This document shows positions 5,834-47,591 of a stretch of DNA of 64,000 nt, one piece after another. The DNA comes from Candidatus Heimdallarchaeota archaeon (lineage in GTDB: Archaea; Asgardarchaeota; Heimdallarchaeia; Heimdallarchaeales; Heimdallarchaeaceae): NCBI GenBank assembly GCA_030603365.1, contig JAUVXV010000002.1, positions 1 through 64,000 of the forward strand. Reading direction: 5' to 3'. How positions within the stretch are numbered: the stretch's first letter is position 1; each line of letters begins with the position of its first letter. The position numbers and the translations under genes are program-made. The notes below the pieces were generated by a model. That model searched no databases and had not been told where the DNA came from. It was given only the letters and a program-made list of their open reading frames with translations.

Positions 5834-5880
5834 TTAATCAGTGAATACCTCGCTAATTTCTGATATCCATTCAGCTGATT
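5834..5880 (-). pseudogene. Orphan copy of the last 15 codons of the ABC exporter gene ending at 7996
   Basis: 39/47 nt identical to 7996..8042; SAEWISEISEVFTD* vs SAEWISEISDVFAD*. Confidence 0.85.
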
Positions 5881-5960
5881 AGAAGGGGTGAATTGCTAAA
5901 AATATAAGTAAAGGTTATAAAATTGCTTAACCTAGTGTATTATGTTTCCATAGGTGTATC

Positions 5961-7922
5961 TTGTTGAGTTCTCTAGAAAATAAACGAATTGAAGCTATTG
6001 TCCAACTATCAAATAAAGGAAAGTATAAACAAGCTTTAGAGGGTATCAACAAATTACTTGATGATAAAACTATTAGTTCTAACATGCAGATTGAACTTGT
6101 TATTCTAAAAAGCAAGATTACACTTTGGTTAGGTATTATAGACGAAAATCGTTTGGACAGAAAAGAAAGAGCATTAAACATAATTGATGAAGTAATACAT
6201 GCGGAAGAAATACAAAATAACCAAATATTAAGTTTTCAAGCTTCAGCATTAAAAGCTAAAATTCTTGTATCTCTAATCAGATGGGATGAATTCCTTGTTG
6301 AAGTAGAAAAGGTTGAGAATTTGTTTCATGGTTTTGAAAAACTAGATAATATGCAACAGAAGATTGCTCAAGCTAATCTATACCAATTAAAAGGACACAC
6401 ACCTTTTGCAAAAACTAATGCTGAAGGTATAGAATGGGATCTAGAAACAAGCATGAAATACTTAAACAATGCTCTGAAGATATATAGAGAACTGAACCAT
6501 TATGAAGAAATAGTCGACATTATCTTTGAAATTACTAATAATCTAAGTCTTGTTTCTCATCACAAAGATATATTCAACTATGCAAATGAAGGCTTAAGAG
6601 CTGCAGAACAATCTGAAAATCTATACTTAATAGCGTTCTCACTTCATCACTTATCAATGATTTATTATAGCAAGAATGATTATATCAACACTTTACATTA
6701 TTCAAAACGAAGTCTGGAAATCTATCAAAAGTTAGGTGATAAAGGAGGAGAGCTTTCCTCGAAGAACATTCTAGGTCTTTACTATTTAAAGACAGAAATG
6801 TTGGAGGAAGCAAAGAAGATTTTTCAGGAAATTTTAAACGAAGTTCCTGAAAGTATCGCAGAGCTTGTCAATCTTTCGATGGTGTATGTAATTGAAGGTA
6901 AACTGATAGAAGCTCTGAAACTGCTCAATAAAGCAAATGAACTGATGCAAGAAGAAAAGCATAAATATCTTACACCATATCCTGCATTTCATATAAGTAG
7001 AATAAAAATCATGCAAGGAGATTTGGATGAAGCTTTGATTTTCCTAAAACAATTTCTAAAATATACTCAAGACAGGAAATATAAAATCGGAATTTCCTAT
7101 ACTCTCTCTTTAATAGCTTCAGTTTACTGGCAAAAAGGAATGAATAGTGAATCCATAGAACATGCAACTAATGCTGTTGAAATCATACAAGAAACAGAAA
7201 GTAAGGAATGGATAGCTTATAGACTTTTTAATTTGATCAACTTACTCTTTGAAGATTCTCAATTTGAAAAAGCAAATATTTACTTTACACAGCTACAACA
7301 AATAAATAGTGAAATCAATCTTAAACATATTAATCACCGTATCTATTTCCTAGAAGCGCTCTTTCTTAAATCAAGTAAGAATATCCGCGATCTTCTGAAA
7401 GCTGAATTTGCTTTCGAACAACTATTAAAGGAAGATTTAGCTTACACTTTGCGAGCACAAGTCTTGCTCAATCTATCTGAACTAAATGTTGTAGGATTAG
7501 AAAATAGCTATGATGAAAATTTACTCGATAAAATAAAAAATAATGTGAAGTTACTTAAAGAATTAGCGATAAAAACTCATTCATCTTCCTTTATTGTTCA
7601 GACTTTATTACTTCAAGCAAAAATAGCAATAATTGATTTAGATTTTTCAGAAACACAGAAATTAATGTCGGAAGCTCTTATGATAGCAGAAGAAAGAGGG
7701 TTGAAGAGTTTGGAACTATTAATATTAAAAGAAAAAGAGGAATTGGTTAAAAAATCAATAAGCTTAGAGAAAGTAGAAATAAGTCAGGTTGAAACAGCTA
7801 AGATAGAAGAAATTCACAAATTGAATGAATCATTGAAAATCCTAAAAAGAGACAGTTTTATTGAACTAAAACAAACTGAAATTAAAGAATCACCATTATT
7901 TCAATTTAAGCATAATATCTAG
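5961..7922 (+). CDS. Tetratricopeptide repeat protein
   Basis: Multiple TPR-like units (e.g. LHYSKRSLEIYQKLGDKGGELSSKNILGLYY). Confidence 0.8.
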   Translation: MLSSLENKRIEAIVQLSNKGKYKQALEGINKLLDDKTISSNMQIELVILKSKITLWLGIIDENRLDRKERALNIIDEVIHAEEIQNNQILSFQASALKAKILVSLIRWDEFLVEVEKVENLFHGFEKLDNMQQKIAQANLYQLKGHTPFAKTNAEGIEWDLETSMKYLNNALKIYRELNHYEEIVDIIFEITNNLSLVSHHKDIFNYANEGLRAAEQSENLYLIAFSLHHLSMIYYSKNDYINTLHYSKRSLEIYQKLGDKGGELSSKNILGLYYLKTEMLEEAKKIFQEILNEVPESIAELVNLSMVYVIEGKLIEALKLLNKANELMQEEKHKYLTPYPAFHISRIKIMQGDLDEALIFLKQFLKYTQDRKYKIGISYTLSLIASVYWQKGMNSESIEHATNAVEIIQETESKEWIAYRLFNLINLLFEDSQFEKANIYFTQLQQINSEINLKHINHRIYFLEALFLKSSKNIRDLLKAEFAFEQLLKEDLAYTLRAQVLLNLSELNVVGLENSYDENLLDKIKNNVKLLKELAIKTHSSSFIVQTLLLQAKIAIIDLDFSETQKLMSEALMIAEERGLKSLELLILKEKEELVKKSISLEKVEISQVETAKIEEIHKLNESLKILKRDSFIELKQTEIKESPLFQFKHNI

Positions 7923-45892: not shown

Positions 45893-45962
45893 TACATAAC
45901 CAAGGTTTCTTTAGTAAAAAAACTTTCGTCCTTAGATTTAACAGCTTGTCAGATTATAACTC

Positions 45963-47591
45963 TTAAACATGTTTTATTACTCTACCTGGCATATTCGTAT
46001 TTTGTTTTCCTTTCTCTACTACTATCTCTCCGTTGACTATTACATACTCTATTCCTTCTGAGAACTGGTGTGGTTCTTCGAATGTTGCTTTATCATATAT
46101 TCTCTCATAATCAAAAATCGTGATATCAGCCCACATTCCTTCTCTAATCAACCCTCTATCAAACAGTCCTAGTTTCTGAGCAGATAAGCTTGTCATCTTC
46201 CTTACAGCTTCTTCAAGTGTTAACAAACCTTCTTCCTTGACATATTTTCTGATAATTCTTGGAAAAGTACCATAAAATCTAGGATGAGGTTTACCATAAG
46301 CCATGATTCCTTCAGGAGCTACTCCCCAACCATCGGTTCCTATTGAGGTATACTTGTTTTTCATTATTCTTCTGATATCTTCTTCACCCATGCTACTGAC
46401 AGTTATCCCTACTTCTCCTTCATTTTCTAGCAGCATATCAAAGATAGTATCTCTTGGATCAGCTTTCCCCTTGATTTTAGTTATTTCATCAACATTCTTT
46501 CCTTCTACATCCTTCCATTCATCTACTTTCACATCGGAGATAAAGATTTTATCAGGTCCTGTTTCTCTATACCAATCATCAAATCCTTCACTTTCATTAA
46601 CCATATCTATTTTGATTTTCTCCCTTAGTTCTTCTGAAGAGAGTCTTTTTAGTGTTTCATCTATCCCACCTTCCATAACCCACGGAGGTAGAAGCGCTGA
46701 CATAGAAGTAGCTCCGCGATTGTAGGGATATTGATCACAGGTTATATCCAAGCCTCTTGTATTTGCTTCTTCTACTAGTTTTAGTGATTCTATACTCTTC
46801 CCCCAATTTCCTTTCCCTGAAGCTTTGAAGTGAGCAATTTGTCCACCACGGCAACCTGATTTCTCAACAATTTCTATGAACTCTCTAACTGCATCAAGCA
46901 ATCCTGAACCTTCATTTCTGATATGAGAAAAATATAATCCTTGGTAATCTGCAACAATCTTTGCTAATTCAATTATCTCTTCAGTTTTTGAGTATACTTG
47001 AGGAGAATAAATTAAACCTGTACTCATCCCAAAAGCTCCTGCCTCCATTGCTTCTTTAGTGAGCTCTTGCATCTCATGTATTTCTATATCTGTTGGGATT
47101 CTGTCTTCATATCCTGGACCTGCAGCTATTCTAATAGGTCCGAAACCAACCAAAGGAACTATATTAGAAGAGATTTTTCCCTTTTCTACCTCTTCCAAAT
47201 ATTCCTTAAAAGTTCTCCATGTTATTTCGGCTGGTTTCACTCCAGGAGGAGCAACCATATCTAAATCTCGCTTAAAAATATCAAAGCCTTTCTCACTTAC
47301 AGGAGCCAGAGAATAACCACATTGACCAACAACTGATGTTGTAATTCCTTGCATAATTATTGACTGTAATTTGTTGTCATAAAGTATGCCTGTATCTGAA
47401 TGGCTGTGCATATCAATGAAACCAGGGCTAATTATTAGTCCGGAAGCATCAATTGTCCTTGTTGCTGAATCTTCTATTCTGTATTGTAATTTAACTATTT
47501 TACCATCTTTTACTGCAATATCTGATTTAAAACCTAAATTGCCAGTTCCATCAAATATTTTTCCATTTTTAATAAGAATATCAAAACTCAT
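45963..47591 (-). CDS. N-acyl-D-amino-acid deacylase family protein
   Basis: PGFIDMHSHSD, GQCG, HIRNEG, HPRFYGTFPR. Confidence 0.92.
   Translation of the reverse strand: MSFDILIKNGKIFDGTGNLGFKSDIAVKDGKIVKLQYRIEDSATRTIDASGLIISPGFIDMHSHSDTGILYDNKLQSIIMQGITTSVVGQCGYSLAPVSEKGFDIFKRDLDMVAPPGVKPAEITWRTFKEYLEEVEKGKISSNIVPLVGFGPIRIAAGPGYEDRIPTDIEIHEMQELTKEAMEAGAFGMSTGLIYSPQVYSKTEEIIELAKIVADYQGLYFSHIRNEGSGLLDAVREFIEIVEKSGCRGGQIAHFKASGKGNWGKSIESLKLVEEANTRGLDITCDQYPYNRGATSMSALLPPWVMEGGIDETLKRLSSEELREKIKIDMVNESEGFDDWYRETGPDKIFISDVKVDEWKDVEGKNVDEITKIKGKADPRDTIFDMLLENEGEVGITVSSMGEEDIRRIMKNKYTSIGTDGWGVAPEGIMAYGKPHPRFYGTFPRIIRKYVKEEGLLTLEEAVRKMTSLSAQKLGLFDRGLIREGMWADITIFDYERIYDKATFEEPHQFSEGIEYVIVNGEIVVEKGKQNTNMPGRVIKHV

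Follow-up and report, generated by a model that had tools for sequence, protein, structure and literature searches.

How does a conserved gene come to have a second copy of its own end a short distance away, on the same strand and with other genes in between? The question is raised by the first 64 kb (the window) of contig C15 of the genome of an Asgard archaeon of the Heimdallarchaeia (G000; 3.65 Mb in 17 contigs, 33% GC, 89% complete). At seven loci in this stretch, an intact gene is accompanied by an orphan copy of one of its ends. A preliminary description had proposed that such ends bracket cargo genes captured through homologous anchors. We consider it probable that the orphan ends are scars of integrase-free, homology-anchored recombination between species of one Heimdallarchaeia genus, taking place in a variable region and with one junction that is non-homologous.

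Divergence of orphan and intact gene ends

The second copies lie on the strand of the intact end at 76–85% identity, and every pair listed in the preliminary description was recovered by self-BLAST and alignment as a direct repeat (Table 1). Repeat length is variable, from 47 to 410 bp, and the spacing between copies is 0.8–2.5 kb. Across the genome, 550 local repeats are direct and 16 inverted, and a scan of gene termini gave 44 orphan matches. All 44 lie on the parent's strand, with none opposite, and 37 point inward; therefore, the orphan ends are not chance matches.

Pooled over the window pairs, the proportions of synonymous and nonsynonymous differences (pS and pN) are 0.45 and 0.08, the synonymous distance (dS) is 0.69, and the nonsynonymous to synonymous ratio (dN/dS) is 0.12, with no premature stops. 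The genome-wide comparison of orphan and intact ends gives a pooled dN/dS of 0.14, with three stops in total. When a local duplicate with one neutrally decaying copy was simulated, detection filter included, dN/dS was 0.44–0.48 (minimum 0.32), with 0.8–1.8 stops per orphan. Since the real ends stand at 0.12–0.14 against ~0.45 for a decaying duplicate, they diverged under selection before they were joined, and the synonymous bias noted in the preliminary description holds in the window and genome-wide. Outgroup-polarised changes, counted without the propeller row, which is out of frame, number 23 amino-acid and 22 silent on the orphan branches and 15 and 32 on the intact branches (P 0.09). The amino-acid share on the orphan branches is far under the neutral expectation (P 3e-5), although these counts would allow slight decay of the orphans since their displacement.

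The identity between orphan and intact ends is in line with the between-species baseline of 71–78%, given by core-region identity to the tested relatives G023 (78%), G020 (~77%), G016 (~75%) and G012 (71%). Near-conspecific genomes were also sought in a JGI (Joint Genome Institute) scan, where matches were distant or short only. Measured against the working ends in relatives, orphan and intact ends are about equally close. Both ends thus evolved as working genes in different lineages, to approximately between-species distance, before they came together.

Empty alleles, chimeric genes and junctions

If the ends come from different lineages, relatives might hold the loci without cargo and the intact genes might be chimeric, as the preliminary description had supposed. 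Both are found. Cargo-free alleles occur in relatives at five of the seven loci (ABC–DJ-1, tatD–Y–E2, creatininase–dehydratase, proX and propeller–D-aminoacylase), and third-position breakpoints were detected in five intact genes: creatininase (P ~0.01), proX, D-aminoacylase and propeller (P<0.004 for these three), and tatD (P 0.01–0.05). All five lie 54–400 bp beyond the duplicated segment, on the gene-interior side, so that a linear donor, joined by a single crossover and a single non-homologous junction, would fit better than a pure single crossover. The microhomology suggested for the other junction could be confirmed at three sites, where it measures 8–13 bp and, as far as relatives were available, was compared with them on either side; short AT-rich matches can arise by chance. 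Junctions also vary between lineages: independent orphans at the same anchors differ in length and are accompanied by other cargo (150 bp for tatD in G016, 215 bp for ABC in G006).

The preliminary description was likewise correct that no integrase, attachment site or common motif is in evidence. There is no linked integrase, the genome's sole tyrosine recombinase being on contig C11 and its five serine recombinases far from the window. Pfam scans found no recombinase between the copies, no 6–8-mer at the nine junctions exceeds random expectation as a shared att- or dif-like motif, and the window has no tRNA or Rfam matches. No restriction-modification family was found among the cargo. Retroposition of the cargo was considered and rejected, with no match to a reverse transcriptase family.

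What sequence of events would produce such an arrangement? We propose that a piece of a relative's chromosome pairs with a conserved gene and crosses over within it, and that the donor's other end would then attach through a few microhomologous bases, often in the same gene or the next, with the help of host recombination and end-joining enzymes. The gene would keep one functional end and the other lineage's end would persist as a stub; accessory genes, or a conserved gene's second allele, would lie between the two. Finished arrangements could be passed from one species to another as their flanks recombine in the usual way; several loci would thus record more than one event.

Table 1. Intact genes, orphan ends and intervening genes of the window, with the aligned copies of each gene end
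Feature	Coordinates	Strand	Aligned copies (identity)	Remarks
Orphan ABC half-transporter 3′ end (15 codons + stop)	5834–5880	−	5833–5880 vs 7995–8042 (83%)	
TPR protein between ABC ends	5961–7922	+		
Intact ABC half-transporter, anchor	7996–9861	−		breakpoint not detected
Intact 226-amino acid (aa) conserved gene, family unknown, anchor	11767–12447	+		
Two open reading frames (ORFs) between 226-aa ends: 128-aa C-terminal remnant of TPR/zinc-finger gene and 158-aa unknown ORF	12477–13463	−		
Orphan 226-aa gene 3′ end	13688–13758	+	13688–13759 vs 12377–12448 (76%)	
Intact tatD	18345–19301	+		breakpoint near 18860–18890 vs closest alleles
Gene Y allele 1	19387–19884	+		in relatives a conserved gene in single copy, placed between tatD and E2
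Fused orphans: E2 upstream + 5′ end (19930–20063), tatD 3′ end (20051–20151)	19930–20151	+	E2: 19930–20063 vs 20714–20847 (81%); tatD: from 20051 vs 19201 (~81%)	
Gene Y allele 2	20216–20707	+		~66% identical to allele 1 in nucleotides
Intact 2-oxoacid dehydrogenase E2-like gene	20768–21589	+		
Intact creatininase	23379–24131	+		breakpoint near 24041
Left copy: creatininase end + intergenic + orphan first 14 dehydratase codons	24095–24246	+	24095–24246 vs 26118–26269 (82%)	
NosD/beta-helix surface protein	24315–25739	−		
Right copy: orphan creatininase 3′ end + intergenic + intact dehydratase start	26118–26269	+		
Intact proX/YbaK-type tRNA-editing gene	32263–32751	−		breakpoint near 32464
Orphan formate/nitrite transporter 3′ end	32792–32947	−		parent gene not nearby; absent from preliminary description
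648-aa surface protein between proX ends	33076–35022	+		
Orphan proX 5′ end, codons 1–54	35092–35253	−	35092–35196 vs 32593–32697 (83%)	
Propeller-family 3′ stub with terminator, upstream of intact gene	40902–41148	+	40902–41148 and 44377–44788 vs 42987–43391 (74–85%)	
Intact beta-propeller surface protein	41339–43366	+		breakpoint near 42808 vs G008
MNT–HEPN toxin–antitoxin cassette	43464–44343	+		
Orphan propeller 3′ end (~126 codons + terminator)	44377–44788	+	see 40902–41148	tail 91% to G023 allele
Orphan D-aminoacylase 3′ end	44871–44998	−	44903–44998 vs 45998–46093 (81%)	start in microhomology overlapping stop of 300-aa gene
300-aa gene, family unknown	44990–45892	−		stop overlaps microhomology with D-aminoacylase
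Intact D-aminoacylase-like amidohydrolase	45963–47591	−		breakpoint near 46494 vs L118

In G001 and G017 the ABC gene is directly convergent on a DJ-1 gene, and the ABC orphan of the window retains the convergent spacing to DJ-1 found in these cargo-free alleles. A homolog of the TPR cargo in G012 aligns as far as the orphan boundary and has a different neighbour there. For the 226-aa gene, whose earlier label "DUF998-like" receives no support from Pfam, no clean empty allele was found among the relatives. Its orphan may extend to ~13630 with a frameshift, and the 128-aa remnant (12477–12863) matches, at 45%, a 1043-aa TPR/zinc-finger gene that a G023-like contig carries in this position. An intergenic remnant of a HEPN gene 3′ end occupies 15189–15305, where L116 has the gene intact with its MNT partner.

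Relatives have one tatD–Y–E2 arrangement, whereas the window has two Y alleles around an E2/tatD stub, the two parts of which are joined via a 13-bp overlap, ATGCAGTAGCTGC, present in both genes. A contig of run X4, which is possibly related to the source sample, crosses this join with zero differences, and sequence from both sides of the join also occurs in a second study. The bracketed gene Y being another allele of a conserved gene, the locus is a cross-lineage duplication and not the capture of a new gene.

At the dehydratase locus, the creatininase gene turns from close to distant relative to the cargo-free alleles near its breakpoint, and its 3′ end is unlike those alleles. L115, L116 and contig C65 of G012 have no NosD gene between creatininase and dehydratase. 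The right copy is 94–96% identical to the cargo-free alleles only from base 63 on, and the first 62 bp of the two copies are closer to one another (77%) than to the empty alleles. As the right copy is thus left-copy-like in its first 62 bp and empty-allele-like in the rest, the locus points to at least two events. The part of proX on the 5′ side of its breakpoint is diverged from the cargo-free alleles, and the proX orphan is continuous with an upstream 78-aa gene, as it is in those alleles.

The propeller locus is a tandem-paralog array with a toxin–antitoxin slot. In G023 the propeller end directly joins the D-aminoacylase end; the orphan block of the window, in which the far side of the D-aminoacylase orphan is continuous with the propeller end in the same way, matches G023 at 86% overall. 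A 122-bp tract of the intact propeller gene (43109–43230) is identical to the orphan, and across it the informative sites relative to G023 switch from 13:8 to 2:14 (intact:orphan; Fisher P 0.003), a pattern that would fit single or unequal crossover. The MNT–HEPN cassette is 91–94% identical to cassettes at the same locus in G008 and L218. All three have a common 8-bp right end, TCAGGTTT, and differ beyond it; therefore, the cassette has spread between species as a pre-built unit here. It is flanked by two full propeller paralogs in G008; in L218 its neighbours are a gene of the beta-lactamase family on one side and a short propeller stub on the other. No second cassette was found in the G000 genome, so a within-genome repeated cassette is rejected. 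This propeller–toxin–antitoxin unit is the only case in which anchor and cargo adjoin in the sampled relatives.

The propeller stub upstream of the intact gene, which the preliminary description placed at 40903, is a real repeat, but it does not bracket cargo with the propeller gene because it sits upstream of that gene; G008 has a shorter stub at the equivalent position. Before this stub lie a PIN-domain gene and a small upstream partner (40141–40849), likely a toxin–antitoxin pair. G008 has an MNT–HEPN pair there, and the position is an exchangeable toxin–antitoxin slot. It is tempting to speculate that toxin–antitoxin cargo could stabilise a repeat-flanked array. Within the intact propeller gene, 41498–42693 comprises about seven tandem 174-bp repeats, and two 285-bp repeats lie near the gene end. 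Another anchor at the propeller locus is seen in L218, where an orphan aldehyde dehydrogenase 3′ end (12864–12911) follows the beta-lactamase-family cargo.

The 300-aa gene has zero matches in Pfam, NCBIfam, PADLOC and the atlas, and is 83–84% identical in nucleotides to genes that G013, G018 and G008 carry at another site. In these relatives the gene is not beside D-aminoacylase, which lends no support to a one-step donor of anchor plus cargo. In L118, whose intact D-aminoacylase gene is 89% identical to that of the window, a 76-aa orphan 3′ end (11648–11878) stands right behind the intact gene, with cargo absent and in an unrelated neighbourhood. "Cargo capture", as first claimed, is inapt for tatD/E2 with its second Y allele, for the 226-aa locus, where one ORF is a remnant, and for the propeller array.

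Several blocks of the window (15250–19000, 23500–24020, 26180–32460, 35200–35600 and 44620–44870) are 88–95% identical to G023-like or G012 sequence, well above the baseline, and are cross-species exchange tracts. Because several of these blocks themselves flank the loci, the direction of events is uncertain, and the native end cannot always be told, being ambiguous where both flanks are exchanged blocks. Two IS605-type tnpB genes (16907–18253 and 28557–29867), 79% identical and with no neighbouring transposase, each lie within such a block; relatives and public runs have empty sites for them, and they are not at orphan junctions. A separate observation concerns L204 (G012 contig C65), of which positions 1–2282 share 99% identity with L220, a G023-like Logan contig; this contig may be mis-binned or may reflect a very recent transfer.

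Competing explanations for the orphan ends

How well does homology-anchored recombination account for all of this? Several points weigh against it. No breakpoint was detected in the ABC, 226-aa, E2 and dehydratase genes, and each of the five that were detected is based on one to three relatives, which are possibly recombinant themselves. In relatives the neighbours of the 300-aa and TPR genes are different ones, with no sampled donor in which the anchor adjoins the cargo, and the reciprocal switch across the identical propeller tract is a better fit to a single crossover. The preliminary description drew a parallel with natural transformation, but bacterial-type DprA and ComEC were not found in this 89%-complete genome. 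That these two were not found, and that MutS and NucS are both present, counts against a reading in which 20%-diverged DNA recombines. It is possible, although we regard it as doubtful, that Heimdallarchaeia have an undescribed DNA-transfer route and a recombination/end-joining pathway that tolerates ~20% divergence despite MutS and NucS; gene ends, toxin–antitoxin pairs and surface genes would then cross between species of the genus via fixed hotspots, with the stubs as reusable homology arms.

The propeller switch is also what would be expected if small circles bearing a gene end and cargo integrated by single crossover, as in the model proposed for Rhs tips, with the stubs trimmed later. 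The mutual closeness of the first 62 bp of the two dehydratase-locus copies, and the presence of the same cargo at different sites in relatives, agree with such circles. A pure single crossover, however, must lie within the duplicated segment, and all five breakpoints are outside it; moreover, no circle has been observed, and we find this route rather unlikely. Less likely again, as a general account, are larger between-lineage tandem merodiploids or paralog arrays, later trimmed by microhomology deletions that left stubs and spared non-redundant genes. The two full propeller paralogs around the same toxin–antitoxin pair in G008, the two Y alleles retained at tatD/E2, and stubs that have no local parent (32792–32947 and 12477–12863) are all in keeping with it. 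Yet two full copies of ABC, tatD, creatininase, proX or D-aminoacylase were not found among 24 genus genomes (for creatininase, among the retrieved loci only), and the model probably holds for the propeller alone.

Decayed site-specific integrative elements, or homing driven by TnpB, with the enzyme gene lost afterwards, would draw support from the tyrosine and serine recombinase genes elsewhere in this genome and from the closeness of orphans to tnpB, since 13 of 36 orphans lie within 10 kb of a tnpB gene when 2.9 are expected at random. This proximity is confounded and was not used as evidence, because the orphans fall into just 17 clusters and variable regions concentrate both kinds of feature. 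Comparison of tnpB flanks with empty alleles, for TnpB guides that would target the latter, gave only two chance AT-rich 16-mers, the junctions have no motif above random, and their positions at the same anchor vary between lineages, by which this very improbable origin is already largely refuted. Scarcely credible, finally, are local duplication with neutral decay and a chimera from co-assembled strains. The slight excess of amino-acid changes on the orphan branches (P 0.09) would be in the direction of decay, which the simulation and the amino-acid share on those branches exclude. A chimera might be suspected since the assembly is probably short-read, its contigs breaking at tnpB copies; against it stand the X4 contig across the E2/tatD join (from a run that may be related to the source sample) and independent assemblies with the same architecture, and it seems unlikely to us that an assembler would merge copies 15–25% apart. 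Homology-anchored recombination between species with one non-homologous junction thus continues to be the reading we favour.

Relation to known systems and frequency

The mechanism type itself is not new. The architecture, which the preliminary description had taken to be novel, has been described in bacteria (PMC2853133, PMC2935791, PMC5361080), and the scars of the window are a diverged variant of long target duplication and of Rhs-type end displacement. Insertion with long target duplication (Nobusato et al. 2000, cited in Furuta et al. 2010, PMC2853133) is alike in its inserts of <20 kb, direct repeats of >30 bp and variable length, lack of a mobile-element gene, and an empty site in a relative. 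The repeats in the tables consulted are ~93–100% identical, whereas here they are 76–85% identical, with dS ~0.7, and consist of the coding ends of genes from different species; and the inserts there are restriction-modification genes, which was a screening criterion, whereas the cargo here is varied. No archaeal case passed the repeat screen of that paper.

In Rhs C-terminal displacement (Jackson et al. 2009, PMC2935791) and where type VI secretion system effectors are displaced in Vibrio (Kirchberger et al. 2017, PMC5361080), the resident end is likewise replaced and pushed downstream as an orphan, stub lengths vary, and arrays, once built, spread by homologous recombination; circles or homology-facilitated illegitimate recombination were proposed. 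Those systems involve a single family of toxin genes whose cores are nearly identical, whereas the anchors here are unrelated metabolic, transport and surface genes with homology 15–25% diverged, and both 5′ and 3′ ends are affected, unlike the C-terminal displacement. The window anchors do not match the arrangement of polymorphic toxins, a core with variable tips and immunity genes. With diverged repeats, no restriction-modification genes and no toxin core, strict membership in either class fails.

Homology-facilitated illegitimate recombination in Acinetobacter, Streptococcus and Pseudomonas (as outlined in PMC2884548 and PMC5361080) shares with the process proposed here the single homologous crossover, the single microhomology junction and the lack of an integrase. 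It is experimental in naturally competent bacteria, whereas here it would be deduced from sequence, with far more diverged anchors and with DprA and ComEC not found. The lpl tandem paralog cluster of S. aureus (Tsuru and Kobayashi 2008, PMC2568036), in which recombination in conserved parts of surface-protein paralogs moves a 3′ end, an intergenic region and the next 5′ end, is fitted by the propeller locus; it belongs to one species and one gene family and leaves the single-copy anchors here unaccounted for.

Work on Asgard gene flow, as represented by PMC8813620 and PMC11529989, centres on transposons, viruses and integrase-bearing elements, and a keyword search of these two papers found no description of such scars. 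The scars are sequence-level evidence that accessory genes move between Heimdallarchaeia species that are 71–78% identical, with no element-encoded recombinase. They also display single genes as mosaics, which is relevant to gene trees of the lineage and to species barriers.

How frequent are such orphan ends? One strict rule was applied to G000 and to control genomes, in 20-kb tiles. G000 has 21 strict cases in 3.6 Mb (~6 per Mb), in 16 of 182 tiles (~9%). The controls gave one case in 0.63 Mb of genus relatives, one in 0.27 Mb of another family, three in 0.84 Mb of other archaea and bacteria, and none in 0.4 Mb of Brocadia, overall ~2 per Mb, a rate from small controls that is probably too low where genomes are fragmented. 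The window stands out as a hotspot, the genome as only moderately enriched; "dense, genome-shaping", as the process had been called, describes the former and not the latter. The core inference of the preliminary description is right, while its novelty and genome-wide reach were overstated. Further clusters of orphan ends occur on contigs C12 (1–20000) and C16 (60000–104000), some of them in paralog arrays, and the inward 3′-orphan pattern with silent-site bias is also seen in two more distant archaeal genomes (L038, 12753–12866; L062, 6509–6595).

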